DNA of 64,000 bases, taken from positions 32,001-96,000 of IMG/VR virus record IMGVR_UViG_3300027668_001405. One strand, given 5' to 3'. This DNA is from a virus. Position numbers and translations under genes: made by a program. This document shows positions 17,526 through 53,062 of this stretch, piece by piece; position 1 is the stretch's first letter; every line of letters begins with the position of its first letter. Below the pieces are notes generated by a model. The model saw only the letters and a list, made by a program, of their open reading frames with translations, was not told the origin of the DNA and searched no databases.

Positions 17526-17527
17526 TA

Positions 17528-19429: not shown

Positions 19430-19485
19430 AGTATTATATGCCAAAAAAGAAAACTATTTCAAACTTTGAAGAAGGAAAAAAAGAT

Positions 19486-23494: not shown

Positions 23495-23788
23495 ATGGCG
23501 ATTGAACGGAAAGACAGATCCTTCGATCTGATCTTTGACCAGGTATCTATGGATCATGTTCCTGCTGAATATATCAGAGAAATTATGGTTGACTTAGGTA
23601 CTGGTGAAAGAATAACACTAACTAAAGATGACTTGTTGCTGATTAAGAACAAATCAGCTGATGACATTATATCTGCATTAAGTGTAGATAACATGTCTAA
23701 TATTAGTTTGAAGCTAGACTATGAAGCAATTAAGTCAGATGTGTTACGTGGAGTAACAGGCTTCTTAGGAAAGCATTTTGACGAATAG
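23495..23788 (+). CDS. hypothetical protein
   Basis: 97 aa, RBS AGGA. Confidence 0.65.
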   Translation: MAIERKDRSFDLIFDQVSMDHVPAEYIREIMVDLGTGERITLTKDDLLLIKNKSADDIISALSVDNMSNISLKLDYEAIKSDVLRGVTGFLGKHFDE

Positions 23789-24467
23789 TAACAATATTTG
23801 GATGTGTGGCATCCCCGGTAGTAGATGGAGCGGAATTGATATACAGATCCGCTCCGTGCTATCGTGCGATCGTTCAGATGAAACACGAGCTAGAACCTTT
23901 TACCATAGAGCATATAACCCCTCGGACAGCAATAACGGACATCGTGGCTCTTATTGGGGACCCGGTATGGGCTGTGGAGAGGACTGGACTGATTTCAATC
24001 ATTTAACAAAAGATAAGATTGAGACTGATATACATAACGTTTTTAACGGAGATGGATATCGAGTTATAAAGAACCATTTCTTAGCTCGTCACTTTAATTT
24101 AGATTACATTTGGAATAACTTTCCAGGTGATAAAATAGTACTCATTTATAGAGAACCTCAAAAGAGTTTTGCATGGTGGAGTGAAGTAATGGATTTTAGT
24201 GATCATCACTACCCAAACTACACGCCAGGATACACAGACTACAACACTATGCGTGAGCTACTTTGGAAAGAGAGTGCAAAAATTACAGACTTTGCACTAC
24301 AAAAAGGAATACAGTTTAAACCATACAATGTATCAGAATTTAAACATTGGAATGGATACGATATTGATATAGCTTCGGAGTATGAGATGATAAATATTAC
24401 TAAGCACAATGATGTATATATTGCATCAGTAACAATACCGGAAAAACTAAATGCAGTCCCCCTTTAA
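23778..24467 (+). CDS. hypothetical protein, possibly sulfotransferase/P-loop-like fold
   Basis: N-terminal MCGIPGSRWSG, later VIKNH and IVLIYR resemble the sulfotransferase layout; weak. Confidence 0.45.
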   Translation: MTNSNNIWMCGIPGSRWSGIDIQIRSVLSCDRSDETRARTFYHRAYNPSDSNNGHRGSYWGPGMGCGEDWTDFNHLTKDKIETDIHNVFNGDGYRVIKNHFLARHFNLDYIWNNFPGDKIVLIYREPQKSFAWWSEVMDFSDHHYPNYTPGYTDYNTMRELLWKESAKITDFALQKGIQFKPYNVSEFKHWNGYDIDIASEYEMINITKHNDVYIASVTIPEKLNAVPL

Positions 24468-25155
24468 AACACCATACCATTTTGATAAGTTTAAAACTGA
24501 TCACGAAGGCGAATATTCTAAGAGTATTGGCGTGTTTCAAGGTGATTGGGCTGATGAGATTGTGCATGCAAGAAGCAAGGCTATGGACGAACAGAAATAC
24601 AATACACAACGATACGAACATGCTGCCAATGCTAAGAGCGAGAATCATACAGAAGAAGATAAAGAAAACACAGATGGTAAGCCTTCTGCAATGATGTTCC
24701 GCAAGATAAATTTTGATAAATACCCAGGAGAATTTCCACTATTCCAAAAGATAGTGGAGCATCTAAAGTTTGATACAAGTAAGAAACTGACATGTAAATT
24801 TAATGATCAATATCCAAATGATCAGCTTATGTGGCACATAGACAACTTGCCCGGTAACCCACGTAAGGAACGTGTAATTGACAATCCAGAGTTTAACTAC
24901 GCTAATGACAATAAGATACGTTTTTTAATTACGATGGAAGATTGGGAACCAGGACAGATAATACAGTTTGGTAACAGAATATATACTCAATGGAAAGCAG
25001 GTACTGCTTTTACTTGGGAATGGAGTACGCTACCACACTTAACATGGAACGGCAGTTGGACCAAACGTCCATGTCTACAACTAACAGGAACTGCAACGCC
25101 AGATACATGGAATATTGTAAATGAAGGCAATGCAGAAACAACCTATAAAATTTAA
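24451..25155 (+). CDS. 2OG-Fe(II)/cupin-type oxygenase-like protein
   Basis: WHIDN (HxD), DWEPGQ, LPHLTWN (distal His), RPCLQLTG. Confidence 0.7.
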   Translation: MQSPFKTPYHFDKFKTDHEGEYSKSIGVFQGDWADEIVHARSKAMDEQKYNTQRYEHAANAKSENHTEEDKENTDGKPSAMMFRKINFDKYPGEFPLFQKIVEHLKFDTSKKLTCKFNDQYPNDQLMWHIDNLPGNPRKERVIDNPEFNYANDNKIRFLITMEDWEPGQIIQFGNRIYTQWKAGTAFTWEWSTLPHLTWNGSWTKRPCLQLTGTATPDTWNIVNEGNAETTYKI

Positions 25156-25167
25156 AGGATAATAATT

Positions 25168-26592
25168 ATGGCAGAAAACAAGTTACCCTCGGATACGTTT
25201 TGTATACTACCGTGGATACATTTAAGCACAAGACCAGACGGAAGTATGCGTGTGTGTTGTACAGCTAATGCAAGTGCAGTAGGAGCAACAAATGATAAAG
25301 TACATGGCGGTCGAGTTGGAATTGTAAAAACAGATGATGGTAAACCTGCTAACTTAAACAACAGTGATTTGAATAGTGCGTGGAACAATAGTTACATGCG
25401 TGGCGTTAGACAACAAATGATGGCTGGTGAACAACCACCTAGTTGTGTAAAATGTTATAAAGAAGAAGCGGCTGGACACAGGTCTAAAAGACAGTGGGAA
25501 ACAGACTATTGGATTAAAGACGGTATCGACGTTGAAGATTTAATAAGGGAAACTTACGAAGATGGAAGTACTGATTCTAAACTACGCTATATTGATATCC
25601 GTATGGGGACGAAATGCCAGTTGGGGTGCGTTATGTGTAGCCCACATGACTCTTCAGGCTGGGTAAAAGATTGGAACAAACTATATCCACAAATTACAAA
25701 TGAATCCTTAAAAGAAACTATGAATTGGGATGCTAAAGGTAAGACCTTTGGTGCAAACTATAACTGGCACAAAAACAACCCAACGTTTTGGGATCAGTTT
25801 TATGCACAGATTCCTTATATCAGACAACTATACTTTGCTGGTGGTGAATCAACAGTTATTGAAGAACATTATTCAATCCTATCTAAAGTTATTGAGATGG
25901 GTTACGCACATCAAATTGAAGTGCGTTATAACAGTAATGGTATTGAACTACCAGATCGTTTGCTAGAGCTATGGACACACTTTGAAAAGGTACGTTTCCA
26001 TTACAGTATTGACAGCATTGGTCCAATGAATGATTATATTCGTTATCCAAGTGAATGGTCACATCAGCTAGCAATGTTTGAACGCCTAGATCAAAAGACA
26101 AGTAACAACGTAGAAATTACAATTGCGTGTGCAGTTAATGCACTTAACATTCATTACATTCCAGACTTCCTTAAATGGAAACTTCAGGATAGCGGACTTA
26201 AGAAAACAAATATGTGGCCTTTTGGAGCAGGTGGTATTAACTATCACTTTGTATACTGGCCCGGACATTTGAATGTTAAGATATTGCCAGATGAATTCCT
26301 AGACAAAACAGAAGCCAAGTATGAAGAATTTATTCAATGGTGGAAAGAGAATTGGGAGCTAGGTGTTCCAAGTTGGCATAAGGGTAAAGTAGACTATCAG
26401 AAATGGGAAGATGCTAGTTATGGTATCAAACGTTTACGTGGTATGATTAGCTTTGCTCGTAGTGAAGATTGGACACGCCGACTACCCGAGTTTAGAGAGT
26501 ATATAAACAAGTTAGATGAATTGCGTGGAACAGACTTCCGTGCAACATTCCCAGACATGGCTTACTTGCTTGATGAACCGGATGACACCTGA
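25168..26592 (+). CDS. radical SAM protein with N-terminal twitch/SPASM-like domain
   Basis: FCILPW..VCC..CVKC; CQLGCVMC; AGGE; SNG. Confidence 0.9.
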   Translation: MAENKLPSDTFCILPWIHLSTRPDGSMRVCCTANASAVGATNDKVHGGRVGIVKTDDGKPANLNNSDLNSAWNNSYMRGVRQQMMAGEQPPSCVKCYKEEAAGHRSKRQWETDYWIKDGIDVEDLIRETYEDGSTDSKLRYIDIRMGTKCQLGCVMCSPHDSSGWVKDWNKLYPQITNESLKETMNWDAKGKTFGANYNWHKNNPTFWDQFYAQIPYIRQLYFAGGESTVIEEHYSILSKVIEMGYAHQIEVRYNSNGIELPDRLLELWTHFEKVRFHYSIDSIGPMNDYIRYPSEWSHQLAMFERLDQKTSNNVEITIACAVNALNIHYIPDFLKWKLQDSGLKKTNMWPFGAGGINYHFVYWPGHLNVKILPDEFLDKTEAKYEEFIQWWKENWELGVPSWHKGKVDYQKWEDASYGIKRLRGMISFARSEDWTRRLPEFREYINKLDELRGTDFRATFPDMAYLLDEPDDT

Positions 26593-26788
26593 GGTTCGTA
26601 AAGAGGCCCATCGACGTTTTTGGATGATCAAGGGCCACTTAGCCTGTAAGGATTGGGACGATGATGCATTATACAAAATGCACGAAAGTTACTTGAAGCG
26701 TTTATGGGGTAATGAAGAAGCATACCTTTGGGAAGAAGGTTTTGAAGAAGCATACTTTAAGTTAACAAATGAACAACCATCAAACTAA
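26573..26788 (+). CDS. small aromatic/acidic protein (about 71 aa)
   Basis: In-frame ATG 26573 of ORF 26516..26788; overlaps both flanking RS genes. Confidence 0.6.
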   Translation: MNRMTPEVRKEAHRRFWMIKGHLACKDWDDDALYKMHESYLKRLWGNEEAYLWEEGFEEAYFKLTNEQPSN

Positions 26789-27980
26789 TACAGACACACA
26801 TTGCACACTGCCTTGGAGTGGTGCGGCAGTTGATGCTGGTGGCAGGGTTGTACCTTGTTGTAGATGGATGGGACCACATGGTGACTTAGACAATGCTCCT
26901 AAAATAGCTAATGGATTAGAAAACGCAAGGAACAGTAAGTTCTTTGAAACAGTACGACAAAGTATGTTAGATGGAAAACGTATTAATGGATGTAAGAAAT
27001 GTTGGGAAGAAGAAGATTTCTTTGGTCCTGAACATCAACAGCGTTGGTTACGTTTACAGCACAATCATAACATACAGGCACTGTCAGTTAATGGAGTAGC
27101 AAACATGACTACCACTGCTCCTACAAAGCTACGGTACCTAGAAACAGGTATAAGCAACCTATGTAACTTTGCTTGTGTAATGTGCAACTCTGCAACCAGC
27201 AGTACGATACACAATATAACAGTCAAAGGCAAAATGCCTAAGAGCTTCCATCAAAACAATAGCGTAATAGATTCAGACTTATCAGAGCTACAATATTTGA
27301 AATTTGTAGGTGGTGAGCCCATGATGGAACGCAAGCATGATGAATTATTAGAAAAGGTTGTTGCATTAAACAATAACCCAACATCACTAGAATTAGAGTA
27401 CCATACTAATGCAAGTATATTTCCAAGCGAGCGTGTAACTACTGCATGGAAGAAAGTAAAATCAGTAAGGATTATATTTAGTTTAGACGGTGTGTATGAG
27501 AAATCTAAACTACAGCGTCCAGGTAGATACAAATGGCAAGATGTAGAAGATACAGTACATAAATATGTACAGCTAGCAGACAAAGTTAATATTATATTCT
27601 CAAGCAATACAGTGTTGACAGCATTGAATGTTGGGCAAGTAATAGATATACTTGAATGGTTATACTCGAGAATAGGACACAAACAACTTGGGTGGTTTAA
27701 TGTACATAAACTGTTTAATGAAAGGTTTAAGTATATAGACCTACGTAATATAAGTCAAGAGAAGAAAACTATTATAAGAAAAGAGTTAACAGATTGGGCG
27801 GCAACAGGTCACCCAGCACTAGACACTCCGCTGAAATCAGTGTATAATGAGACTATAGAAGCACTAGATACACCACCTAGTGGTACATTGACTCTTAGTA
27901 GAGAGTTAATATTAGAAAAGCATTTCCAAAATGATATATGGAAGTACTTCAAAGAAGAATTAAAGGACCTAGAAATATAA
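26769..27980 (+). CDS. radical SAM protein with N-terminal twitch/SPASM-like domain
   Basis: HCTLPW..PCC..CKKC; CNFACVMC; GGEP; HTNA. Confidence 0.9.
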   Translation: MNNHQTNTDTHCTLPWSGAAVDAGGRVVPCCRWMGPHGDLDNAPKIANGLENARNSKFFETVRQSMLDGKRINGCKKCWEEEDFFGPEHQQRWLRLQHNHNIQALSVNGVANMTTTAPTKLRYLETGISNLCNFACVMCNSATSSTIHNITVKGKMPKSFHQNNSVIDSDLSELQYLKFVGGEPMMERKHDELLEKVVALNNNPTSLELEYHTNASIFPSERVTTAWKKVKSVRIIFSLDGVYEKSKLQRPGRYKWQDVEDTVHKYVQLADKVNIIFSSNTVLTALNVGQVIDILEWLYSRIGHKQLGWFNVHKLFNERFKYIDLRNISQEKKTIIRKELTDWAATGHPALDTPLKSVYNETIEALDTPPSGTLTLSRELILEKHFQNDIWKYFKEELKDLEI

Positions 27981-28516
27981 TGAAATACATTTTAGTAGCT
28001 CTAAAAGCAGAATTGCCAGAGCATAATTTAGACCCTACATCATACAAAGTATGGTATACTGGTGTTGGTAAAGTAAATGCATCTATATGGGCAACACTTG
28101 CATGCATACAAAAAGACTGTGAAGCAGTTATTAACTACGGAACAGCAGGTGCATTTAATAGTGAACTAGCAGAACAGTTACTACACATTGGTACAGTAAA
28201 GCAACGTGACATGGATACAAGGCCACAAGCAGAACTAGGTGTTACTCCGTTTGAAGACAGTGGATTTGAAGGTGACATTAAACTTAGTAATAGTGCATAT
28301 ACATGTAGCACTGGTGATAACTTTGTAACAGAGGTTCCAGAATTAGAAAGTGATTGTGTTGATATGGAAGCATATGCAATTGCTAAAGTATGTAAGCACT
28401 TCCAAAAGAATTGCATAGTTTACAAATATATTAGTGACCTAGCAGATTCAGATGCTGCGGCAACGTGGGTAGAGAATCAACACAAAGGAGCAGATGCTTT
28501 TATAGCAATGACCTAG
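27980..28516 (+). CDS. mtnN: MTA/SAH nucleosidase (PNP_UDP_1 family)
   Basis: TGVGKVNA, INYGTAG, TGDNFV, VDMEAYAIA, ISD. Confidence 0.85.
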   Translation: MKYILVALKAELPEHNLDPTSYKVWYTGVGKVNASIWATLACIQKDCEAVINYGTAGAFNSELAEQLLHIGTVKQRDMDTRPQAELGVTPFEDSGFEGDIKLSNSAYTCSTGDNFVTEVPELESDCVDMEAYAIAKVCKHFQKNCIVYKYISDLADSDAAATWVENQHKGADAFIAMT

Positions 28517-28517
28517 T

Positions 28518-29774
28518 ATGAGTGGATTTTGTTCATTACCTTTTGTACAGTACAGCACATATAACGGAGGCCGTTATAGACTTTGTTGTATGGCTAAAGA
28601 ACCAACTACACTTGTTAACCAAGAAGAGTTGGGTATTAATGGTACATGGAATCACGACTATATTAAAGATGTAAGACGTAGAATGACTGCCGGTGAGAAG
28701 TTATCCGAGTGCAGTGAATGCCATCACTTAGAACGTAATGGAATAATGAGTTCACGTCAATGGGAAAACAAAGTATGGGCAGATGTAATTGATGGAATCG
28801 TAGCAGACGCAAGTGCTAATGATTGGGAAGTTGATCAGCCATTACAGTTTGACTTTAGATTAGGAAACCTATGTAACCTACAGTGTCAGATGTGTAACAA
28901 AGAAGCATCACACTTGGTAAGCGTAGAACGTGCGGCAATGATTAAACGTGGACTAGGAGCTGACCACCCAGATTGGGAAGGACAGATTGCAAGCAAGAAA
29001 GAAGCACTTCTGCAACCTGGAATTGATTGGGTAGACTTTAAAGCCATGTTACCATATGCTCGTAAGATAAAACTAATAGGTGGCGAACCTACAGTAGCAA
29101 CAGATATGTTTAAGCTACTAGATATTGCAACAGAAAGCGGACACGCAGAACACATTGAATTAAGCTTCTACACAAATATTACAAACATGCAAGACAAGTG
29201 GCTAGCTCAGTTAGCTAAGTTTGAGAAAGTCATTGTTAACTGTTCACTAGAAGGAATGGGCGACATGAATGACTATTTGCGTCCACCTAGTAAATGGGCT
29301 AGTGTGTGGAAGAACTTTGATAAATTAGTACAGTTTGCTGATACTAAACCGGGTAAGCGTATTAAGGTACGGGTTACTACAGTAAACCAAATGACTAATG
29401 CATTGCACATAGTTCCTTTTTGGAAGTTTATGCATGATTACCAGATGACTAGTAATAGAGGCATTGGAATGAGTACCAATCAGCTAGTGGAGCCTGCTTA
29501 CTACAGCATGGCACATGCACCTGAATGGTTGAAAGAACAACAACGTGAACAGATTTTGGAATTTCTTAAGTCCATTGACAACAGCCCTCACTTTGAGCAA
29601 TATGAAGAACCACTCATGGAAGTGGTTAACTTTAGTCTTGATAGTGAGCACAAGTTTGATGCTAACATCATGCAACAATATGTCAAGGTCACCGAAAACT
29701 ACGACAGATTCAGAGGACACATGGTTACCAAAGTGTCTCCCGAATTTGAACGAATTAAAAAAGACTCCGAGTGA
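28518..29774 (+). CDS. radical SAM protein with N-terminal twitch/SPASM-like domain
   Basis: FCSLPF..LCC..CSEC; CNLQCQMC; GGEP; YTN. Confidence 0.9.
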   Translation: MSGFCSLPFVQYSTYNGGRYRLCCMAKEPTTLVNQEELGINGTWNHDYIKDVRRRMTAGEKLSECSECHHLERNGIMSSRQWENKVWADVIDGIVADASANDWEVDQPLQFDFRLGNLCNLQCQMCNKEASHLVSVERAAMIKRGLGADHPDWEGQIASKKEALLQPGIDWVDFKAMLPYARKIKLIGGEPTVATDMFKLLDIATESGHAEHIELSFYTNITNMQDKWLAQLAKFEKVIVNCSLEGMGDMNDYLRPPSKWASVWKNFDKLVQFADTKPGKRIKVRVTTVNQMTNALHIVPFWKFMHDYQMTSNRGIGMSTNQLVEPAYYSMAHAPEWLKEQQREQILEFLKSIDNSPHFEQYEEPLMEVVNFSLDSEHKFDANIMQQYVKVTENYDRFRGHMVTKVSPEFERIKKDSE

Positions 29775-29810
29775 TTACTCTTGGACATGTAAATGGAGAG
29801 TTAGATTCTA

Positions 29811-31019
29811 ATGAACTTTGGTTTTAAAAGTTATAACAGTTGGGACCCACTAAAGAAAGTATTGTTGGGTAGTACACTACCTGAGGGCTTCTTTGCAGAT
29901 TTCCCAGACCCTAAAGTAGCAGATGCTATGACTACAGTTAACGAGGAAACTCGTGAAGACTTAAACAACTTGCAATCAGTATTTGAGAGCAAGGGCATTG
30001 AAGTACATAGGATGCCAGAAGCATGTGTATTAAAGAATAGAAGGTTTAACAGTGTAGCTGAATTTATAGACATGCATGGATATATTCCTAAACCTTTTAA
30101 TGCACCAAGAGATGACCAAATCATTTTTGGAGAGCATATGATTACAGGAACATCAAATCCTGTACATAGAATATTCCATGGTACTAGAGAAGATACATTT
30201 AACATATTTGATAAAAAAGCACCCTGGGCAGGCTGTGATGATTTAATTGATATTGCAGATCCCAATCAAGAACTAAACATAATTGAAGCAGTTGGCAAAC
30301 CTAACTTTACAATGAGTTGGCCTAGTATTATGAGAGCAGGCAAGGACATTATAATTGATATACATGATTTTAATGGACCTACTAGACAGCTAGCTGAAAA
30401 CTGGGTAGACCGTTTTAATGAGAAGTTTGGTTATAAGTTTAGAATTAATACAACTACAATGGGTGGACACACTGACGCAGTAATGGCACTTGTTAAACCT
30501 GGGCTTATAATAAGTCATGTTAATGTAAACAAGTATGAAGAAACATTTCCAGGTTGGGATGTAATTAAAATAGATAGAACACACAACGATCATACAGTAG
30601 CTTGGAACGAATTCCGTATCTCAGAAAAAGATAAATGGAGAGGTAACAAACTAAATCCAGTAGCAGATTATTGGATTGCAGGACAAGAACACAACGTAGC
30701 ATTGAATAAATTTATTGACTTATACATGCACCCTAGCGTTGGCAGTTGTTTTGAAACAAACTTTGATGTAAACTGTGTAAGCATAGACGCTAATACAGTA
30801 GTTGCAAGTGGACCTAGTAAAGTGTTAGAAGATAAGCTAGGCAAGCACAACGTAGATGTAATTACGTCTAACATGAGGCACAGATTCTTTTGGGATGGTG
30901 GCTTACATTGTGCTACAGTTGATTTATACCGTGAAGGCGAGATGGAAGATTACTTTCCTGAACGCAGTGCAGGAGTTGATTTTGGTAAAGTGTGGGGCAA
31001 TAACGAAACACGCCGGTAA
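29811..31019 (+). CDS. amidinotransferase (AGAT/StrB1-like pentein fold)
   Basis: SWDPLKKV, APRDD, GGHTD, DGGLHCAT (Asp-His-Cys triad). Confidence 0.85.
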   Translation: MNFGFKSYNSWDPLKKVLLGSTLPEGFFADFPDPKVADAMTTVNEETREDLNNLQSVFESKGIEVHRMPEACVLKNRRFNSVAEFIDMHGYIPKPFNAPRDDQIIFGEHMITGTSNPVHRIFHGTREDTFNIFDKKAPWAGCDDLIDIADPNQELNIIEAVGKPNFTMSWPSIMRAGKDIIIDIHDFNGPTRQLAENWVDRFNEKFGYKFRINTTTMGGHTDAVMALVKPGLIISHVNVNKYEETFPGWDVIKIDRTHNDHTVAWNEFRISEKDKWRGNKLNPVADYWIAGQEHNVALNKFIDLYMHPSVGSCFETNFDVNCVSIDANTVVASGPSKVLEDKLGKHNVDVITSNMRHRFFWDGGLHCATVDLYREGEMEDYFPERSAGVDFGKVWGNNETRR

Positions 31020-31027
31020 ATTAATTG

Positions 31028-31035
31028 CATAAATA
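31028..31035 (+). promoter_or_regulatory. late promoter motif CATAAATA
   Basis: Intergenic inside the RS cluster, before RBS AAGGA. Confidence 0.5.
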
Positions 31036-31066
31036 TAATTATCAACGCATATAATAAAGGAAAACA

Positions 31067-31945: not shown

Positions 31946-31957
31946 CAAGGAATAATA

Positions 31958-42564: not shown

Positions 42565-42566
42565 TT

Positions 42567-44838: not shown

Positions 44839-44856
44839 TAGAAAGGGGAGAACAAC

Positions 44857-45537: not shown

Positions 45538-45546
45538 AGACACACT

Positions 45547-46110
45547 ATGAGAATAATTGCAACAGGAAACCCTAACTTTGGCGTAGCAAGTGCTATCGCT
45601 GAACGATGGCCAGAAACTACATTTGTTAATAGAACAGATTGGGGCTACGATTTATGCCAAGATGGATACAAAAAGAAGCTAGCAGAAAAGACTCTTAACT
45701 ATGACGTCTTTATTAACTGTTCCGCACTATGGCAGTACCACCAAACTCTCCTACTAGATGTAGTCTATAAAAACGCTTTAAAGAACCGTAAACGACTACA
45801 TATAGTTAGTTTAGGTAGCACTACTGACCGGGCCACTAAAGGCTCTGATTGGCACTATCAGCAAGAAAAGAAAGCGTTACGTAGTACAAGCAACGCATTG
45901 GGCTTAAAAAGCATATGGGCAGGCGGTCCTAAGGTAAGTTATGTTACATTTGGAACACTTGAGAACAATGCACACAAGCACCCAGGTAGAGCTGTAATGC
46001 AACTAAGTGAAGCAGTAGATATGATTGAATATGTAATTAGTCTTCCAGATCATTTAAACCTAAATGAAATAAGCATGGACCCAATACAAACAGAGTGGCC
46101 GAATGTCTGA
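45547..46110 (+). CDS. short SDR-like oxidoreductase
   Basis: IIATG..GVASAI, DVFINCS, IVSLGS, YxxxK (YQQEK), LNEI. Confidence 0.7.
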   Translation: MRIIATGNPNFGVASAIAERWPETTFVNRTDWGYDLCQDGYKKKLAEKTLNYDVFINCSALWQYHQTLLLDVVYKNALKNRKRLHIVSLGSTTDRATKGSDWHYQQEKKALRSTSNALGLKSIWAGGPKVSYVTFGTLENNAHKHPGRAVMQLSEAVDMIEYVISLPDHLNLNEISMDPIQTEWPNV

Positions 46111-47281
46111 AGATAAAATGTGCTACATGCCTTGGCACGGAATTACGCTGAGTGCTAATGGCGATATTAAACCTTGTTGTCAATTTAGTAACAAAGGACG
46201 TAGACCTAATACTGAACACGACACTATTATGGAAAACTTTAATAGTGAACGTATGCAAGAATTACGTGGACAGTTTCTAATAGGTGAACAACCTAAAGCA
46301 TGTAACAGTTGTTGGGAGAGAGAAGACTTAGTAGGCAAGAGTAGACGCTTATGGTTCAATGAAAAGTTTATGAAAGACGACGAAGCTTTTCAACAAGGAT
46401 ACAACCCGTCAGACCTAGTAGTACCTAATCCTAAATTATATCAAGCAGATATTAACTTGTCAAACGTATGCAATTTGAAGTGTCGTATGTGTGGAAGTTG
46501 GGCCAGTAACAGTTGGTTCAAAGAAGAAATAGCACTAGCAAAAATAGACAAACGTTATGAGAAGAATGAACGTGTTGTTCCAATACAACAATACGACTTA
46601 GAAGATTTACGCAATATGCTACCTCACTTGAAAGAAGTCAAACGTATAGACTTCAAGGGTGGCGAGCCTATGATGGCAAAGCATCACAATCAATTCCTGC
46701 AATGGCTTATTGAAGAAGATATGACAGACATAGAATTGTTTTACACTACCAACGGAACAGTACAGAATCCTAAAATTATGGACTTGCTCAAACACTTCAA
46801 ACGTGTTAGTATATGTTTTAGTATAGAAGGTACTGGAGATTTATATAGATACATCAGAGGCGGTAGGTATGACATAGAAGGTTTTGAAAAATGCGTAGCA
46901 GTTTACGACAAATTAGAAAACGTACAAATTATGTTTAATGTAACATTACAGAACTATAACGTATTCAACTTGCCTGAACTACATGAGTTTTTACACGATT
47001 TAGAAGATAAATATAACAGAGTAAGTGCTAAACATAGTTTTGGTACAATCTGTAATAAACCTGCTTACCTAAGCCCAATTAATTTACCAGACGATTTACG
47101 TGATCAAGCAGTTGAGCGTTTATCATTATATGAAGATTTCGACCAATTGGTAAAGAGTATGAATAAGCGTGTATTCGACCCAGAACTATGGGAAGTGTTT
47201 ATTAACTTTACTAACGACCTAGACAAAATGCGAGGAGACAGTGTGTTAAAATCTGTGCCTGAGCTAAAGGATCATTTTTAA
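46103..47281 (+). CDS. radical SAM protein with N-terminal twitch/SPASM-like domain
   Basis: MCYMPW..PCC..CNSC; CNLKCRMC; GGEP; TTNG. Confidence 0.9.
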   Translation: MSEDKMCYMPWHGITLSANGDIKPCCQFSNKGRRPNTEHDTIMENFNSERMQELRGQFLIGEQPKACNSCWEREDLVGKSRRLWFNEKFMKDDEAFQQGYNPSDLVVPNPKLYQADINLSNVCNLKCRMCGSWASNSWFKEEIALAKIDKRYEKNERVVPIQQYDLEDLRNMLPHLKEVKRIDFKGGEPMMAKHHNQFLQWLIEEDMTDIELFYTTNGTVQNPKIMDLLKHFKRVSICFSIEGTGDLYRYIRGGRYDIEGFEKCVAVYDKLENVQIMFNVTLQNYNVFNLPELHEFLHDLEDKYNRVSAKHSFGTICNKPAYLSPINLPDDLRDQAVERLSLYEDFDQLVKSMNKRVFDPELWEVFINFTNDLDKMRGDSVLKSVPELKDHF

Positions 47282-48000
47282 TGCTAGTAGGAATTGAAGA
47301 CAACCATGCACCCAAAGACGAGTTACTTCGAGTAGAATGGAACTTAGGCAAACGTTGTAACTATAACTGTAGCTACTGTGGTAACGAACTACATAACAAG
47401 ACAAGCGACCATATGAATTGGGAAGTGTACACAGCTACAATTGATAAAATTGTTGCGGCAGCTAATGGCAAGAAGATTAAAATTAGTTTTACAGGTGGGG
47501 AACCATTTGTACATCCACAATTTATTGATATGATGAAGTATGCTAAAGAGAATGGCGTATACAGATTAAGTGTAACTACCAACGGAAGTCCACCACCAAA
47601 GATATATAAGAAAGCATTGCCGTACTTGCATTACGTAGTAATAAGCTACCACTTTGAATTTGCTTACCACGACAAAGTTATTAATAACATTGTAGGCATG
47701 TGGTCAGACATTCAAGAGTATCGCAAGCAAGATCAGTGGAAAGGTATGCACGTACACATTATGGCACTACCTGGAAAGCTAGCACAATGGCAAGAGATTA
47801 TAACAGAATTAAAAGACTGTGGAGTTGAATATACAATACGTAAAATTAGACCACGTGTTAACATGGCTCGAACAGGCTGGAACAAACCACATCAAGATGG
47901 AATGTTAGGGCAACACCCTACTCACGAAGAAACCGAGAAGTATGCAGGACAATATTATAGTCCGGAAGAAGAGGAATGGCTTACTGCCCAAAATGCTTAA
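47281..48000 (+). CDS. radical SAM core only (lacks the C-terminal SPASM domain)
   Basis: WNLGKRCNYNCSYC, FTGGEP, TTNGS; paralog of 51875..53062 but about 155 aa shorter. Confidence 0.88.
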   Translation: MLVGIEDNHAPKDELLRVEWNLGKRCNYNCSYCGNELHNKTSDHMNWEVYTATIDKIVAAANGKKIKISFTGGEPFVHPQFIDMMKYAKENGVYRLSVTTNGSPPPKIYKKALPYLHYVVISYHFEFAYHDKVINNIVGMWSDIQEYRKQDQWKGMHVHIMALPGKLAQWQEIITELKDCGVEYTIRKIRPRVNMARTGWNKPHQDGMLGQHPTHEETEKYAGQYYSPEEEEWLTAQNA

Positions 48001-48619
48001 TCAATCAGATGACAAATTGGAAATTGAACTAACTAGCAAGTGTGCATTACAATGCCCAGCTTGTGCAAGAGTGACACAATCTGATATGAAACAAGAATGG
48101 GATGCAGGACATTTAAGCAAAGAATTATTATTTAGAATATGTGACACTACAAACTTTCATAGATATCAATTTGTAGGTTGTTACGGAGATCCTATATACC
48201 ATCCTGACTTTTTGGAAATATGTAAATATTTTATGGCAGCAGGTAAGAAGATACTAGTGCATACAAATGGTAGTGCAAAGCCAGAAAAGTTTTGGAAGGA
48301 AGCAGCAGACATAGTTTGGAAAGGATGTATATTTACATTCAGCGTTGATGGACTAGAAGATACTAACCACATATATCGTAAGGGTTCTAAGTGGAAGCAA
48401 ATATTAACAGCAATGAAATATATGGCTAGTATACCTAGAGAAAACAGACCAACATTAGAATGGAAGTTTTTAGTATTCCCATACAATAAGCATCAAATAG
48501 AAGAAGCACGTACACTAGCAAACGAGCTAGGGTTTACAAAGTTTGAAGCATGGGATAGTTATAGAAATGCTAATTCTTATAACGTACCAGCAGAGGAGCT
48601 TCATAACTATGTTTCATAA
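47993..48619 (+). CDS. radical SAM protein (split pair, paralog of 5638..6297)
   Basis: CALQCPAC, GCYGDPIYHPDF, HTNGS, FSVDGLEDTN. Confidence 0.9.
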   Translation: MLNQSDDKLEIELTSKCALQCPACARVTQSDMKQEWDAGHLSKELLFRICDTTNFHRYQFVGCYGDPIYHPDFLEICKYFMAAGKKILVHTNGSAKPEKFWKEAADIVWKGCIFTFSVDGLEDTNHIYRKGSKWKQILTAMKYMASIPRENRPTLEWKFLVFPYNKHQIEEARTLANELGFTKFEAWDSYRNANSYNVPAEELHNYVS

Positions 48620-48938
48620 GAATTTAGATCCTCAGTGTAGAAAAGAGAACATGCAGGAAAAGAATAATATTCAGCTTAGTGCTACTGGTTATTTAAAACC
48701 TTGTTGTTTTTATGGTACAAGCATTAACTGGAAACAGCTAATGACATGGGCAGACAATCGAGGACTTGATATAGAGAATTTGAATATTACTAAACATAGT
48801 GTAGAGAAGATATATAACTCTCCATTATGGGCAAACATGTTGCTAGGACAAGTTACAGGCGACTTACCAACTCCATGTTGGGACCTGTGCAGAGTTAATA
48901 GCACAAATAAAATAGATGTAAAAAAACATGCAAAATAG
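48609..48938 (+). CDS. stand-alone SPASM/twitch-like protein (paralog of 6294..6617)
   Basis: PQC..LSATGYLKPCCF..PCWDLC. Confidence 0.72.
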   Translation: MFHKNLDPQCRKENMQEKNNIQLSATGYLKPCCFYGTSINWKQLMTWADNRGLDIENLNITKHSVEKIYNSPLWANMLLGQVTGDLPTPCWDLCRVNSTNKIDVKKHAK

Positions 48939-50235
48939 AGACCACGAACAACTAGCAATAAAGGAAGCTAAGGCCTGGTTACTCGAGCCTGGTAATAACT
49001 TCTGTGCTATGCCGTTTATACATATGGCAATTGAAGCCACTGGCGACATACGTCCATGTTGCATGGGCAAGCCTTTAGAAGGAATGAGTATAATAGGTAG
49101 TACAGTTGCAGAACAGTTCAGGTCTCCAATAAGAGAAGAGTTTGTAGAAAAATTTAGAAACAATTCAAAGCCAGCTGAGTGTTCAGCGTGTTGGAAAGAT
49201 CCTTTTATTAGAGCAAAGTTTTCAACCTCACCTGGAGCATTATCATCTACAATAAATTTTATGAACACTGGATCTATTGAGAAAGAACTAATATGGTTAG
49301 AGATTAAGCCGGGCAATAGATGTAATTTAAAGTGCAGGATATGTGGAGTACACAACAGTAGTGCATGGGCAAAAGATGCTAACTCATTACGCAATTTTAA
49401 ATTTGGCGAGAATGTTCCTTTTAAAGAAAGTGAAGCATTCCAAGTAACACAAGCTGGCGAGTGGATTGAAGATGAAAACTTCTGGACTCAACTGTCTGGA
49501 TTTGAGTCTATTGAGTTTTTACATTTTATGGGCGGAGAACCTTTTATGGTACCTGAACATTTTCAAATGCTAGAACACCTGGTTGCAATGCCACACTTGG
49601 ATACATCAAGAATAACGTTAGCTTACAATACAAATGGCACATATTTTCCTAGCGAAGAGAACTTAGAACTATATAAGAATTTTAAGAAAGTACATATGTC
49701 ACTAAGTATAGACGACTTTGGACCTAGATTTGAATATCAACGTAAACTAGCTGAATGGGACCAAGTAAAAGAGAACCTTAGAAAGTTTGCTTTATTAGGA
49801 GAAGATGATAAGTTCTTTGTTAATCTAGATCCTACTGTAAGTAACTATAACATATTTTACATGGCAGAGATTTGGGACGAGTTCACTAAACTTGGCTTTA
49901 GGTTTCAAAGAGGTGGATTGAATCATTTTGTATTTACTGGTCCAGATGCAATTATTAATATTCCAGTTGAGATGAAGAAAATAATAACTGATAAATATGA
50001 GTATGCACGTACAAATACAGGACTTGTTGAAGCCTATACAGTGTCAGCAATAGATTACATGAATAGTCAAAGACCAAATCCTGAAGCTTGGAGTGACTTC
50101 ATAAATAAAACTATGCACTTGGACAGTATCAGAAAAGAATCGTTTGAACAGACGTTTCCAGAGATGCATGCACTAATAAAGGGTACAGATGGTTTTAAGA
50201 GACAGATGGCTATAATGGAATCCATGAATGAATAA
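48928..50235 (+). CDS. radical SAM protein with N-terminal twitch/SPASM-like domain
   Basis: FCAMPF..PCC..CSAC; CNLKCRIC; GGEP; NTNG. Confidence 0.9.
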   Translation: MQNRDHEQLAIKEAKAWLLEPGNNFCAMPFIHMAIEATGDIRPCCMGKPLEGMSIIGSTVAEQFRSPIREEFVEKFRNNSKPAECSACWKDPFIRAKFSTSPGALSSTINFMNTGSIEKELIWLEIKPGNRCNLKCRICGVHNSSAWAKDANSLRNFKFGENVPFKESEAFQVTQAGEWIEDENFWTQLSGFESIEFLHFMGGEPFMVPEHFQMLEHLVAMPHLDTSRITLAYNTNGTYFPSEENLELYKNFKKVHMSLSIDDFGPRFEYQRKLAEWDQVKENLRKFALLGEDDKFFVNLDPTVSNYNIFYMAEIWDEFTKLGFRFQRGGLNHFVFTGPDAIINIPVEMKKIITDKYEYARTNTGLVEAYTVSAIDYMNSQRPNPEAWSDFINKTMHLDSIRKESFEQTFPEMHALIKGTDGFKRQMAIMESMNE

Positions 50236-50590
50236 TTTTAAAAACTTAATCAAGCACTATGATGATAAACCGTCTGAAGAGGATAACGCAAACAATGTTA
50301 TGGCTCGTGATGAGAATGATTTCCGTGGATGGGAATGTTGGGCAGGAGTACAAAACATTACTATTAGTAATACGGGAGATGTGTACAGAGCAATATGTAA
50401 AGTGGGTGGTAAACTTGGAAACATTTATGATGGATTTGAGATGCCCCAAGAAACAATTATATGTAATAAGCCTAGATGTATTTGTTCAGCAGATGTGCAG
50501 TTATCTAAAGCGTTACCAGAGCACGTACATAAATTAAGAATAGGCAATGAATCAAACCAATTAAACTTTGATGACATATATAGATCATGA
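50228..50590 (+). CDS. stand-alone SPASM-like domain, probable detached C-terminus of 47281..48000
   Basis: FRGWECWAG..AIC..LGNI..ICNKPRCICSAD aligns with the C-terminus of 51875..53062. Confidence 0.75.
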   Translation: MNNFKNLIKHYDDKPSEEDNANNVMARDENDFRGWECWAGVQNITISNTGDVYRAICKVGGKLGNIYDGFEMPQETIICNKPRCICSADVQLSKALPEHVHKLRIGNESNQLNFDDIYRS

Positions 50591-51885
50591 ACAATTATAA
50601 CAAATTTAAAGAACGAGCAATAGGCAAGCTACATGGGATGCCAGTAGACAAAGAAACATTTTGTCCACTACCATTTGTACATGTTAGCACAATGCCACAT
50701 GGTGAAGTTAAACTATGTTGTAGAGCTCAACCACCTAAGAACGGAACAAACCCTAACGTTAAGAATCCTGAGTTTAATCTTAAAGATTATTGGCACAGTG
50801 AATATATGAATGAGGTGCGTGATGACTTAATATTAGGTGTAAAGAATTCACAGTGTAGTAATTGCTGGAAGATGGAAGACAACGAAATTGTTAGTTTACG
50901 TATGAATAGAATTACTGACTTAATGGACAACGATACATACAAACAGAATATAAACAAGTACCTAGTAGAACGTGAAGTAGATTTTAGTATTCCACTAATT
51001 GAACTTAAACTAAGCAACGTGTGCAACTTTAAGTGTCGCATGTGTTGGCCAAAGGATAGTTCAAAGTGGGTAACAGACTGGGATAAAGTTTCTAAATTTT
51101 ACAGTGAAGGCGACCAGCGTTACATAGAAGAGATTGTAGATAGCAACGGCCTACGTAAATCTAGGGTAATGAATTTATATGAGAAGGATAAAGACTTTGT
51201 TGATCAATTACTTGAATTGATGTCAACAGTTGAAGAAATAGAATTTGCCGGAGGCGAACCATTAATGGATCCAATACATTATCGTGTATTAAACAACATA
51301 CCAAATCCTGAGAATGTTACACTAAAATACAGCACAAACCTAAGCATTATGAAGATGGGCAAAAACAACGTAATTGACTTGTGGAAGAAGTTCAAGAGCA
51401 TTAAACTTACAATTAGCATAGATGGATATAAAGATCTTAATGCTAAAATTAGACGTGGTGCTGACTGGGACCTACTAAAGCATAACATTGCACTTGTTAA
51501 AGAGCATTGTCCTAACATAGATGTAATCAAAGGATCAACATGTATTAGCGGTATGAACGCAGAAGACTTGGGCAAAACAGCTGAAGCTATTGTGTTTGAA
51601 TTAGGTATACATTGGCACACAAGTCGTGTACAATGGCCCGATTTTTTACATGCTAACGTATTAAGCCCTGTACAACTAAAACGCGGTATTGATAGCTTAC
51701 AGACGCTCTTAGACACCCTGCCGGGGCGTGATAACGTACCCAGACAGTTTATGATGGAAACACATATTAAAGGTGCAATGAGCTGGTTAGAGTCATGTAT
51801 AGAGAAAAACGAACACCACAACAAATACACAAAATTTACTGAATTTAATGCAAAAATAACGGAGATGGATACAAATGGAAAATAA
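50587..51885 (+). CDS. radical SAM protein with N-terminal twitch/SPASM-like domain
   Basis: FCPLPF..LCC..CSNC; CNFKCRMC; GGEP; STN. Confidence 0.9.
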   Translation: MNNYNKFKERAIGKLHGMPVDKETFCPLPFVHVSTMPHGEVKLCCRAQPPKNGTNPNVKNPEFNLKDYWHSEYMNEVRDDLILGVKNSQCSNCWKMEDNEIVSLRMNRITDLMDNDTYKQNINKYLVEREVDFSIPLIELKLSNVCNFKCRMCWPKDSSKWVTDWDKVSKFYSEGDQRYIEEIVDSNGLRKSRVMNLYEKDKDFVDQLLELMSTVEEIEFAGGEPLMDPIHYRVLNNIPNPENVTLKYSTNLSIMKMGKNNVIDLWKKFKSIKLTISIDGYKDLNAKIRRGADWDLLKHNIALVKEHCPNIDVIKGSTCISGMNAEDLGKTAEAIVFELGIHWHTSRVQWPDFLHANVLSPVQLKRGIDSLQTLLDTLPGRDNVPRQFMMETHIKGAMSWLESCIEKNEHHNKYTKFTEFNAKITEMDTNGK

Positions 51886-53062
51886 AGAAGACTTGAAATG
51901 GAGCGAATATGACTTTACTAAAACACCATACGATAAGTTGGTGCGTGTGGGTCAGCGTAATATTCTGTACCGCGACATGTTTACTGTTAGTTGGTTGCTT
52001 GGCCGTTTTTGCAACTATAATTGTAGCTACTGTTGGCCTTACGCTAGGAGTGGTAAAAAAGATCACAGACCTACTGAACTAAATTTAAAGACTATTGATG
52101 AGATTAAACGTCAAGCACGTGAACGTGGATTTAATAGTTTCCACTTTAGTCTAAGTGGAGGCGAACCAACTTTCCATCCAGGCTACTTAGACATGTTAAA
52201 GCATCTAAGTGATGATGCACATAACACAAACTATACAAGTGTACACATGACATCAAATTGTAGTCGTAATATGAAATGGTTTAAGACATATTGTGAATAC
52301 GCAAGTAAATTCCATCGTGCAAGTATTACAGCTAGTTTGCATACTGAACATGTTAACACACCTGAGAAGATGCAAGACTTGGCAGAGAAATTAATCATGT
52401 GTCAAGAACATGATGTACAGGTAACTATTAACATGGTTATGGTTCCTGATCTATTCCAAGAATATTATGATAATGCATTATTTTATCATAACCAAGGAAT
52501 TAACGTTACGCTAAAACCTCAATCAGATCCAACAGCAAGTAAAATTGTAGATGGTTACACACCTGAGATGTTAGCTAAGTTGCACAACGGTATGCCACAA
52601 CGTAGTTACACAGAAGCTAAAGCACAACATAAGCAGTTAGTGGTTAGACCTAAGCCTACATTTAAAATTGATAAAGACGATCATTATCGTAAGCAAACAG
52701 CGGCAGTGCCGTGGAATATGCAAGTAGAATTTAGAGACGATAAAGGTGATCCATATTACATGGACCAAGCAGAACGTTTTAATGCGTTTAACTTTAATAA
52801 GTTTAAAGGGTGGGAATGTAGTAGTGGATATCGTAGTATTATTATCCGTGAACCTGATGGAAGTGTGAAGCGTAGTTATAGCTGTCACGATCAACCTCTA
52901 GGTAACATTGAAACAGGATTTAAGTTGTTTGATGGACCTAAGGTGTGTACAACAGATTCATGTGTTAGTAGTGCAGATAGTAAAATCCCCAAACGAGCGC
53001 CGGGGACTAAGTTGCCTTTATGGCCAGGTGATAAAACATATGAGCATGGAACGTTTGACTAA
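51875..53062 (+). CDS. radical SAM protein with C-terminal SPASM-like domain
   Basis: WLLGRFCNYNCSYC, SGGEP, TSN; FKGWECSSG..SC..LGNI..CTTDSCVSSAD. Confidence 0.9.
   Translation: MENKEDLKWSEYDFTKTPYDKLVRVGQRNILYRDMFTVSWLLGRFCNYNCSYCWPYARSGKKDHRPTELNLKTIDEIKRQARERGFNSFHFSLSGGEPTFHPGYLDMLKHLSDDAHNTNYTSVHMTSNCSRNMKWFKTYCEYASKFHRASITASLHTEHVNTPEKMQDLAEKLIMCQEHDVQVTINMVMVPDLFQEYYDNALFYHNQGINVTLKPQSDPTASKIVDGYTPEMLAKLHNGMPQRSYTEAKAQHKQLVVRPKPTFKIDKDDHYRKQTAAVPWNMQVEFRDDKGDPYYMDQAERFNAFNFNKFKGWECSSGYRSIIIREPDGSVKRSYSCHDQPLGNIETGFKLFDGPKVCTTDSCVSSADSKIPKRAPGTKLPLWPGDKTYEHGTFD

Follow-up and report, generated by a model that had tools for sequence, protein, structure and literature searches.

Organization of the radical-SAM cluster

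We analyzed a stretch of 64,000 nucleotides (hereafter, the window), which is bases 32001-96000 of the 137,797-bp IMG/VR virus record IMGVR_UViG_3300027668_001405; the completeness of the record is ~40% by the CheckV estimate. Between positions 23778 and 53062 of the window (29 kb), 31 open reading frames (ORFs; g01 to g31), all on the + strand, are packed into a cluster in which genes encoding enzymes of the radical S-adenosylmethionine (SAM) type are interleaved with genes for amidinotransferases, dioxygenases and other accessory enzymes. Judged from sequence, the best explanation is that these genes form one operon-like supercluster and encode one conserved system rather than a heap of genes, because the cluster is syntenic in related phages, its members pair with bacterial orthologs, the same families co-occur in bacteria, sub-blocks keep their order and components are found fused to one another.

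An earlier note on this DNA, made from the letters alone, had described 31 contiguous co-directional genes; this is confirmed, with about 20 of 29 junctions overlapping and a widest gap of 176 nt. One of the 31, g04 (26516-26788), is a doubtful ORF of 90 aa with no family match, which overlaps both g03 and g05, sits in the sole sizeable gap and is not conserved in relatives. As it is overlapping and unconserved, we count 30 credible genes. An independent 27-kb marine contig spans 26053-45167 with 24 differences, and 98-99% of the sampled words of 31958-39061 are present in 15 marine metagenome runs. This agreement of independent marine contigs confirms that the cluster is not a misassembly, a possibility that the earlier note had raised. 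Contigs from two marine RNA libraries cover 30/30 and 27/30 bins, most of 25168-45167, which hints at expression of the cluster without establishing it, as such libraries can contain DNA.

The record encodes a family B DNA polymerase (phrog_262) with 45-47% identity to those of Rak2/121Q/GAP32/Atu_ph07-type jumbo phages. We regard the record as viral because this polymerase is nearest to jumbo phages, and the best explanation is that it derives from an uncultured marine jumbo myovirus. The earlier claim of a multi-step tailoring line carried by a virus is supported in this respect.

The CX3CX2C motif of radical-SAM cores is present in exactly 15 ORFs of the cluster, as the earlier note had counted. 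It is followed by GGEP in 12 of them and by G..GDP in two; g03 has neither exact motif. The Pfam Radical_SAM gathering cut-off (29.5 bits) is reached by 12 of the 15, with g03 (28.3 bits) and g15 (28.2 bits) just under it, and the match of g07 spans only part of the core. In the whole record, 21 Radical_SAM matches were found.

The N-terminal-twitch radical-SAM paralogs

From our analysis of the 15 radical-SAM proteins, 11 (g03, g05, g07, g12, g15, g16, g20, g21, g24, g28 and g30) are mutual paralogs with 21-30% identity. They were assigned by the NCBIfam model NF033640 (N_Twi_rSAM, hereafter N_Twi) and not by the Pfam Radical_SAM score; all 11 cover the full model at 191.5-418.5 bits, above its curated cut-off of 170 bits. 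The earlier note had held that the proposal would fail if the paralogs belonged to one characterized housekeeping family. The 11 main paralogs do share one family, which is catalogued but uncharacterized: our literature searches on the NF033640/N_Twi family, on phage radical-SAM arrays and on Bdellovibrio radical-SAM clusters found no functional study, and our PDB search found no solved structure of the family. The family is large, as its profile retrieves 8,284 clusters at 50% identity (E <= 1e-30).

The 11 paralogs carry a Pfam SPASM-type domain at residues ~7-97, preceding the Radical_SAM match. The cysteine pattern C-x17-CC-x27-60-CxxC of this N-terminal domain is found in 10 of the 11, g12 being without the CC pair. 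When a profile of the domain was searched against the PDB, the sole match was BtrN (E 5.3e-6), and the alignment covers all four cysteine ligands of the auxiliary cluster of BtrN. As the cysteines align with these ligands, N_Twi proteins are predicted to be permuted twitch enzymes with one auxiliary [4Fe-4S] cluster. The four to five cysteines of the auxiliary domain suit a single cluster, as in twitch domains, and the seven-Cys SPASM motif CX2CX5CX3C occurs in none of the cluster ORFs. The AlphaFold model of g24 (pLDDT 83.5, pTM 0.85) has generic radical-SAM neighbors, namely SkfB, BlsE, GDGT-MAS, CteB, viperin, DesII and MoaA, with a TM of ~0.38 each; SuiB is also among the structural neighbors of the N_Twi model.

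The best-conserved paralog is g03 (25168-26592; NF033640 418 bits), with identities of 81-90% in close phages, 64% in a distant phage group and 52-55% in the loci L031 and L040; in the tree described below, it falls in an orthogroup with bacterial copies. By contrast, g05 (26769-27980; 212 bits) is fast-evolving or replaced in relatives. The remaining paralogs can largely be matched to bacterial counterparts: g07 (28518-29774; 294 bits) clusters with the Bdellovibrionia copy L025:5115-6344 (support 95), g12 (34072-35325; 250 bits; orthogroup support 95) follows an amidinotransferase in bacteria as well, g15 (36703-37836; 221 bits) groups with Bdellovibrionota copies, and g16 (37805-39061; 310 bits; support 99) has orthologs of 36-37% identity that adjoin g13 orthologs in bacteria. 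Further downstream, g21 (43588-44838; 379 bits; support 100) has orthologs 43-52% identical in phages and Bdellovibrionota, g24 (46103-47281; 314 bits) has orthologs of 43-44% in Bdellovibrionia, g28 (48928-50235; 272 bits) groups with Bdellovibrionia copies at support 99, and g30 (50587-51885; 297 bits; support 98) has a 38% ortholog downstream of a g25/g29 pair in the bacterial locus L025. The lowest score is that of g20 (42537-43619; 191.5 bits).

Together with four further copies outside the cluster, the whole record encodes 15 N_Twi proteins. The four extra genes, all over the cut-off, lie at record positions 118178-119317 (- strand) and 132722-136549 (- strand, three in tandem). Those at record positions 133902 and 135395 are mutual nearest relatives, the only recent duplication that we observed.

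Other radical-SAM enzymes and their split partners

The four remaining radical-SAM genes belong to two types. The product of g31 (51875-53062), the most conserved gene of the cluster, combines a viperin/MoaA-like radical-SAM core (53 bits) with a C-terminal 4-Cys domain, in which C315, C337, C358 and C363 are invariant. Its family profile has viperin as the nearest PDB match (3.8e-9), with MoaA also matched; a single-sequence PDB search with g31 found nothing. Its identity is 57-77% across phage, metagenome-assembled genome (MAG) and Bdellovibrionota loci, and it is represented by 4,717 clusters at 90% identity in metagenomes, with no match among 50,697 deposited phage genomes.

The two halves of this architecture also occur as separate genes. 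The core encoded by g25 (47281-48000; 56 bits) is the counterpart of the N-terminal half of a g31-type enzyme (37% identity to the N-terminus of g31), and the stand-alone 4-Cys domain encoded by g29 (50228-50590) that of the C-terminal half (36% identity to g31 residues 288-376), with C37, C57, C79, C84 and C86 invariant. In five bacterial loci, a g29 ortholog comes immediately after a g25 ortholog, and the stop of the first gene overlaps the start of the second. A complex model of g25 and g29 reached an ipSAE of 0.83, with 0.00 for the best control, and passed a mark that is attained by 58 of 80 solved complexes and by 2 of 110 mismatched pairs; the model runs had at least 80% of contacts in common, with a partner pLDDT of at least 81. 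Such a pass is expected because the two proteins are halves of a split gene. From the modeling, g29 is the predicted partner of g25.

The second type is represented by g11 (33026-34072; Radical_SAM 33 bits), which has an extra C-terminal Cys motif in the ordinary domain order, and whose best NCBIfam matches (W-cofactor maturase, ScmF and SkfB) remain well below the cut-off. A g11-type core (41 bits; 28% identity to g11) without its own auxiliary domain is encoded by g26 (47942-48619). It is followed by g27 (48543-48938), a stand-alone SPASM/twitch-like Cys domain; the two are adjacent here and in the bacterial locus L029, and g27 is likely the partner of g26 on the basis of this adjacency and of a fusion. 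The earlier note had listed two stand-alone SPASM-like domains. For g27 this holds marginally (Pfam SPASM 21.8 bits, cut-off 21.5); for g29 it is ruled out by homology to the C-terminal 4-Cys domain of g31.

Accessory enzymes

The NCBIfam scan gave nothing for 12 accessory genes. Both amidinotransferases of the earlier note are borne out. The protein encoded by g10 (31958-33025) belongs to the HsvA/StrB1/SxtG/AGAT superfamily, with PDB matches to HsvA (8.8e-26), StrB1 (1.3e-18) and SxtG (2.2e-18) and to AGAT as well (matches range from 1e-12), and g08 (29811-31019) encodes its paralog (25% identity over 390 aa). Residues H219, D221 and H339-C340 (g10 numbering), which we take to be catalytic from what is known of AGAT and StrB1, are invariant over 28 family members including g08. 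Orthologs of g10 in Bdellovibrionota clusters are 45% identical. The PLP (pyridoxal 5'-phosphate) enzyme encoded by g13 (35318-36265), also confirmed, is a short, aminotransferase-like protein of fold type I (Aminotran_1_2 25.5 bits, over the cut-off) with invariant S199-x-x-K202 and D174, and its orthologs (42-45%) adjoin an amidinotransferase in bacteria.

Two of the three oxygenase-like genes claimed earlier stand. One is g09 (31067-31945), a putative Fe(II)/2-oxoglutarate dioxygenase resembling KdoO, the hydroxylase of 3-deoxy-D-manno-octulosonic acid (Kdo). Its language-model neighbors are Kdo-hydroxylase clusters (0.96), and its profile has KdoO as the sole, weak PDB match (E 0.18). Eleven g09 homologs share invariant H141-x-D143 and H242, which line up with the LHVD and H regions of KdoO. 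Orthologs of g09 occur in six bacterial loci; the gene is co-directional with the cluster here, but every close relative examined has it on the opposite strand (L003-L014, ~9080-9900, minus). The other is g19 (41704-42564), an Fe/2-oxoglutarate dioxygenase of the Asp/Arg beta-hydroxylase family (PF05118, 42.6 bits), whose bacterial orthologs are either free or fused to g17/18-like domains. The proposed third, g02 (24451-25155; 234 aa), has no family match, shows an HxD...H motif by eye and is specific to the phage lineage; as it has no similarity to g09 or g19, it was rejected as an oxygenase.

The protein encoded by g17 (39048-40334) is predicted to have two domains, a glycosyltransferase-A (GT-A)-like fold followed by a class I SAM-methyltransferase-like fold, and g18 (40331-41713) encodes its paralog (22% identity). 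Neither protein gave a match by sequence. In the AlphaFold model of g17 (pLDDT 81.5), residues 13-203 match GT-A structures with Z 9-10 (SpsA, GfsA, Mimivirus R699 and STIV A197), and residues 204-414 match 6ulo with Z 12 and PNMT/CheR with Z ~9. The invariant residues of the g17/g18 family (N212, T213, E214, G238, D261 and G279) are all in the second domain. In bacteria, the family is fused to the hydroxylase in proteins of 678-740 aa. PDB searches with g18, g13 and g19, by single sequence and by profile, found nothing.

The nucleosidase and nitroreductase named in the earlier note were likewise confirmed. The former, g06 (27938-28516), is of the methylthioadenosine/S-adenosylhomocysteine (5'-deoxyadenosine) type (PNP_UDP_1 57 bits; 84.6 bits against the nucleosidase model NF004168, under the cut-off), has a 43% ortholog adjoining the cluster in L040 and probably clears the radical-SAM by-product. 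The latter, g22 (44857-45537), is a nitroreductase-fold flavoenzyme (PF00881 24.3 bits, cut-off 23.5). The short-chain dehydrogenase/reductase (SDR) was not confirmed: g23 (45547-46110) encodes a small Rossmann-like protein with weak SDR matches (E ~0.01), and its orthologs (34-45%) occur in seven bacterial or MAG loci. Two further genes have no family match. The 150-aa product of g14 (36258-36710) is found in a few close phages only, and g01 (23778-24467; 229 aa, with no Pfam or NCBIfam match) has homologs solely in the loci L003-L014; its membership of the system is uncertain because it is restricted to these close phage relatives.

Several types of gene were looked for and not found in the Pfam scans of the 31 ORFs. 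They gave no match of the PqqD type or of the RRE (recognition element for RiPPs, peptides made on the ribosome and modified post-translationally) type, in agreement with the earlier note, and the cluster has no precursor-like small gene. Nor did they give a cyclitol-forming enzyme (2-deoxy-scyllo-inosose (DOI) synthase or inositol-phosphate synthase) or a resistance or export gene. A DNA-acting transferase (DpdA/TGT, 5-hydroxymethyldeoxyuridine (5-hmdU) kinase or aGPT-Pplase) was also not found in these general scans, and no search aimed at these was made.

Conservation among phages

Related loci were retrieved with g10 and with an ortholog alignment. The conserved co-occurrence that the earlier note had anticipated in related phages was found, as the cluster is syntenic in 21 IMG/VR contigs. 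These fall into two viral groups, with g10 identities of 77-91% in one and 49% in the other, and the second, distant group retains g03, g10, g12, g13, g21 and g31. Conservation among the close relatives is uneven: g03 can be 90% identical, g05 is 49% identical or absent, g18 is 43-47% identical and g08 is missing in some. The number of N_Twi copies in five related records ranges from 11 to 18 each. Among isolate phages, N_Twi genes are carried by KVP40-like Vibrio phages (2 copies), by K566/K567 (5) and by Ralstonia phage RsoM2USA. In Vibrio phage K566 (locus L001; OZ196521.1, 160041-171009), N_Twi genes and genes without assigned function form a compact block with NAD salvage genes nearby, and a gene annotated as the lipid A acyltransferase PagP lies two genes from the N_Twi cluster.

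Bacterial counterparts and evolutionary history

The cluster is not phage-specific, as the gene set is found in Bdellovibrionota chromosomes too. With g24 orthologs as queries, the great majority of the cellular relatives came from Bdellovibrionota, some of them on contigs of 0.9-3 Mb, and a single Bdellovibrionota genome can carry up to 20 N_Twi copies in arrays. The family was present in 45 of 201 sampled Bdellovibrionota genomes and in none of 14 control genomes. Three further loci carry arrays that are 52-74% identical to the phage genes: L031 (a 1.27-Mb contig labelled Candidatus Parcubacteria), L040 and L035 (MAGs labelled Gammaproteobacteria and Crocinitomicaceae). The last two may be mis-binned phage contigs.

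We then surveyed co-occurrence in 73 bacterial loci with N_Twi arrays. The g25/g29/g31 family was present in 20 of them, the g11/g26 family in 17, the g18/g19 family in 13, the g13 family in nine, the g23 family in seven, and the g08/g10 and g09 families in six each. As far as sequence families can tell, the accompaniment of the bacterial arrays is thus the accessory set of the phage cluster. Sub-blocks with conserved order between phage and bacteria include g16-g13-g10-g12-g19-g17/18-g19, g24-g25-g29-g30 and g21 with g26+g27. Components are also joined in metagenomic fusion proteins, such as g29+N_Twi, N_Twi+g26+g27 (P0327), g17/18+N_Twi+N_Twi and N_Twi+N_Twi. Many of the metagenomic proteins P0246-P0272 (~800 aa) are two N_Twi_rSAM units in tandem; the fused protein P0319 adds tetratricopeptide (TPR) repeats only.

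In a tree of 79 N_Twi proteins, the 15 copies of the phage need 14 label changes, and nine phage paralogs pair with Bdellovibrionota orthologs at support 95-100. The nine pairs and the 14 label changes indicate that the paralogs are old, functionally distinct subfamilies which moved between phage and bacterium as a set. This pairing with bacterial orthologs rules out that they are recent duplicates.

The bacterial neighbors of the arrays include GT2, GT28, TylF, RmlD, NodU/CmcH carbamoyltransferase, PP-loop amidotransferase-like and B12 radical-SAM genes; the carbamoyltransferase adjoins N_Twi arrays in five bacterial loci. Among the neighbors, AAA_5 is the Pfam family seen most often (5 of 135). 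A distant family member in Paenibacillus sits in a small-molecule cluster with acyl carrier protein (ACP), ketosynthase, SDR, GT2, phosphopantetheinyl transferase (PPTase) and ABC genes rather than in a peptide cluster, which suggests that the family is not tied to peptides.

Support genes and surroundings in the phage

The phage also carries genes that could serve a radical-SAM system. A complete MetK (SAM synthetase) gene with all three MetK Pfam domains (108-192 bits) lies at 9521-10615 (+), 13 kb upstream of the cluster, and fits a heavy SAM demand of the cluster. Just past the end of the window are genes for an A-type Fe-S carrier (IscA; PF01521, 39 bits) at record positions 96420-96728 (-) and a cysteine desulfurase (IscS; PF00266, 279 bits) at 98360-99445 (-). 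Taken with g06, these genes suggest that the phage supplies SAM, removes 5'-deoxyadenosine-type by-products and builds the clusters for about two dozen Fe-S enzymes.

Outside the window, the record carries a NodU/CmcH-type carbamoyltransferase gene (phrog_1601) at record positions 4009-5517 (+) and two genes without assigned function at 17255-18971 (+). Homologs of these genes adjoin bacterial N_Twi arrays (families f15, f13 and f11). The presence of homologs of outlying phage genes beside the bacterial arrays suggests that the system is spread over several sites of the phage genome.

Directly upstream of the cluster are a MoxR-like AAA+ ATPase gene (AAA_5; 19438-20610, +) and a gene for a DUF2201 metallopeptidase/von Willebrand factor A (VWA) protein (20985-22163, +). 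This pair and the accompanying small genes were not counted as members of the shared system, being syntenic only in close phages. Farther upstream are an S8 subtilase of 922 aa (158-2926, +) and a trypsin-like protease with a PDZ domain (17594-18904, +). The nearby sugar genes of the earlier note were found in part: a 251-aa ORF at 6636-7391 (+) encodes only the N-terminal domain of UDP-glucose/GDP-mannose dehydrogenases and is too short for the full enzyme, and a search of the record with PF02878 gave no match to a phosphoglucomutase/phosphomannomutase (PGM/PMM)-family gene. On the opposite strand past the cluster are a gene resembling the alpha subunit of ring-hydroxylating dioxygenases (54852-55934, -; 22.9 bits, slightly short of the cut-off) and a complete phosphoribosyl pyrophosphate (PRPP) synthetase gene (60117-61064, -).

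Proposed function and alternative explanations

The gene set would be consistent with a modular radical tailoring line whose product is a heavily modified amino/guanidino sugar-type compound (a glycan, glycolipid or small molecule). We favor this interpretation with slightly less than even confidence; the amino/guanidino-sugar logic of the earlier note, drawn from twitch radical-SAM enzymes, a PLP enzyme, amidinotransferases and a KdoO-like gene, remains the best-fitting reading. The substrate would be a carbohydrate-type scaffold: a glycan-borne or glycolipid-borne sugar, a sugar nucleotide, or a small molecule resembling a cyclitol. Its secondary alcohols would be oxidized by the twitch radical-SAM enzymes in a BtrN-like manner, along with further C-H chemistry; the PLP enzyme would convert the resulting ketone to an amine, the amidinotransferases would turn amines into guanidines, the dioxygenases would hydroxylate, and the didomain proteins would attach sugar and/or methyl groups. 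The infected cell would be the site of synthesis, and the product may end up as a decoration on a structure of the phage or cell surface, or serve as a free metabolite. BtrN oxidizes a secondary alcohol to a ketone, which is then transaminated, and in streptidine the amine is amidinated by StrB1; by analogy, the block of g12/g16, g13 and g10 would match this sequence of oxidation, transamination and amidination. The KdoO-like and PF05118 dioxygenases, the GT-A/methyltransferase proteins, the carbamoyltransferase and the sporadic sugar-gene neighbors in bacteria would also agree with a carbohydrate-type scaffold.

A number of observations, however, weigh against this interpretation. The BtrN-like chemistry of the N_Twi enzymes is inferred by analogy from the auxiliary domain alone, and the neighbors of the N_Twi model include the peptide maturases SkfB, CteB and SuiB besides BlsE, DesII and MoaA. 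A six-frame search of the record with the KdoO family PF11004 gave no match at E <= 0.1, and PF05118 enzymes act also on proteins and lipid A. The cluster has no sugar-nucleotide synthesis gene, cyclitol synthase, canonical glycosyltransferase or exporter. The GT-A and methyltransferase assignments of g17 and g18 derive from middling structural Z-scores (9-12), and the GT-A-like domain of their family has no invariant residue at all. The earlier statement that no glycosyltransferase is present was too strong in view of this predicted fold, yet a search of the record with PF00535 (GT2) found no match. Most of the bacterial cluster neighbors have no Pfam family match, and only a small number are related to sugars (4 GT2 among 135).

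Maturation of a protein or peptide is an alternative that we consider unlikely, though deserving of attention. Here the enzymes would modify phage proteins (virion or effector) or host proteins, in the manner of RiPP maturases or of HxsB/HxsC acting on HxsA, with the substrate gene elsewhere in the genome. SPASM/twitch radical-SAM enzymes are typically peptide maturases, and the SkfB, CteB and SuiB structures are among the nearest to N_Twi; PF05118 hydroxylases are known as a family to modify Asp/Asn of proteins; and the pairing of a hydroxylase with a GT-A domain resembles the collagen lysyl hydroxylase/glycosyltransferase LH3, itself among the fold matches. Weak, sub-threshold matches to HxsB/HxsC and the proteases upstream point the same way, but the genes upstream of the cluster are conserved in close phages only and not with the system. 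The cluster itself has neither the precursor-like small gene nor the PqqD/RRE match and CX2CX5CX3C motif, and a six-frame search of the 138-kb record, which is ~40% of the genome, revealed no ORF with HxS repeats or a poly-Ser tail. Amidinotransferase, carbamoyltransferase, KdoO-like and PLP enzymes would be unusual in peptide pathways, and the Paenibacillus member lies in a non-peptide cluster. It is distinctly unlikely, in our estimate, that the system instead remodels lipids or lipopolysaccharide, altering acyl chains or Kdo-lipid A-type glycolipids, either in the infected cell or in a predator, for example to block superinfection. KdoO, the relative of g09, and the LpxO branch of PF05118 (from family knowledge) both act on Kdo2-lipid A, the core matches of N_Twi include the tetraether lipid synthase Tes/GDGT-MAS, the Paenibacillus member is found among ACP, ketosynthase, SDR and GT2 genes, and the PagP-annotated gene of K566 is close to its N_Twi genes. 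Yet every one of these links is a distant family resemblance, lipid A chemistry is not known to involve amidinotransferase or PLP steps, and the phage cluster has no lipid A, Kdo or fatty-acid synthesis genes and no recognized predicted membrane enzymes.

The weakest case is that for hypermodification of nucleic acids or nucleotides, by which phage DNA would receive a modified base or nucleotide, or a nucleotide analogue would be formed; we consider this highly improbable. The closest relatives of the g31 and g25 cores, viperin and MoaA, have CTP and GTP as substrates, but this likeness is restricted to the common radical-SAM core. A PRPP synthetase gene lies past the cluster, and work by Lee and colleagues in 2018 is said to have found radical-SAM and PLP enzymes in phage thymidine hypermodification. 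Against it, the general Pfam scans recognized no DNA transglycosylase, kinase or glycosylase-like gene in the cluster. Modification of DNA or nucleotides is unlikely chiefly because the gene set is present in Bdellovibrionota chromosomes with up to 20 N_Twi copies per genome, which is hard to fit with modification of virus DNA. Finally, the genes could be a toolbox of independent enzymes with separate targets (e.g., in host take-over or conflict) that are merely co-located. Close relatives have g05, g08, g11 and g18 either exchanged for other genes or strongly diverged, and g09 in inverted orientation; further N_Twi copies lie at other sites of the genome, the family is very large and varied, and its carriers are predators and viruses. 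Such a collection would not be expected to show genes so tightly packed, overlapping and co-directional, sub-blocks and gene order kept between phage and bacteria, fusion proteins that link different components, and the same accessory families recurring across many loci, and we consider it very unlikely.

Returning to the tailoring of a carbohydrate-type scaffold, we propose, somewhat more tentatively than the pathway itself, that the N_Twi arrays represent an unrecognized biosynthetic class common to marine jumbo phages and predatory, perhaps episymbiotic, bacteria, which would make a new modified glycan, glycolipid or metabolite for attacking or attaching to other cells. A family of ~8,300 clusters without a known reaction has grown to 11-20 copies in single genomes of ocean phages and is present in about one-fifth of the sampled Bdellovibrionota, and for this system the phage bears the cost of a SAM synthetase, a by-product nucleosidase and genes for Fe-S assembly. 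Finding the product would expose new radical enzymology and a trait common to viruses and bacterial predators of marine bacteria. The cultured Vibrio phages KVP40 (2 copies) and K566 (5) offer an experimental entry point.

Comparison with known systems

The radical-SAM-rich tailoring cluster is a real and important finding, although not one made here for the first time. A marine T4-like genome of 183 kb, TARA_ERS488813_N000010, carries 12 radical-SAM genes along with an A-type Fe-S carrier, glutaredoxin and PaaD (Nishimura et al., 2017; PMC5332604); that study counts the genes as Fe-S-related auxiliary genes and names no family, pathway or bacterial counterpart. Both that genome and the phage described here combine many radical-SAM genes with Fe-S helper genes (here IscA and IscS). 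The word "undescribed" in the earlier note therefore needs qualification, as the family is catalogued and such a genome was noted in 2017; it holds in so far as no functional study was found.

In the HXS antiphage system, the effector HxsA is matured by the paired radical-SAM enzymes HxsB/HxsC (PMC13128918). The HxsB/HxsC hidden Markov models give weak matches here (E 1e-4 to 1e-5), far under their cut-offs; HXS has no amidinotransferase, PLP or dioxygenase partners, and the present record has no HxS-repeat protein.

Among characterized enzymes, the link is to BtrN (2-deoxy-scyllo-inosamine dehydrogenase of butirosin synthesis), whose auxiliary twitch domain is homologous to the N-terminal domain of N_Twi. 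In BtrN, however, the twitch domain follows the core, whereas in N_Twi it precedes the core, and the cores are not specifically related. More generally, canonical SPASM/twitch enzymes (BtrN, anSME and RiPP maturases) have a C-terminal auxiliary domain; this order is reversed in the 11 paralogs and retained in g11 and g31. The cluster also differs from the BtrN pathway in having no 2-deoxystreptamine- or inositol-forming enzyme and no aminoglycoside glycosyltransferase.

With NF033640, the correspondence is complete at the level of the single protein, since all 11 paralogs are members with an N-terminal Cys domain followed by CX3CX2C and GGEP as in the family. NF033640 is nevertheless a catalogue entry, and its definition does not extend to arrays in which 11-20 divergent members are accompanied by a constant set of accessory genes; such arrays are a feature of the phage and Bdellovibrionota loci. 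The Bdellovibrionota clusters (e.g., L025/L029, a 916-kb contig) have in common with the phage the N_Twi orthogroups, g09, g10, g11, g13, g17/18, g19, g23, g25+g29, g26+g27 and g31, at 34-64% identity, and they add B12 radical-SAM enzymes, PP-loop enzymes, GT2s, carbamoyltransferases and hydroxylase-g17/18 fusions.

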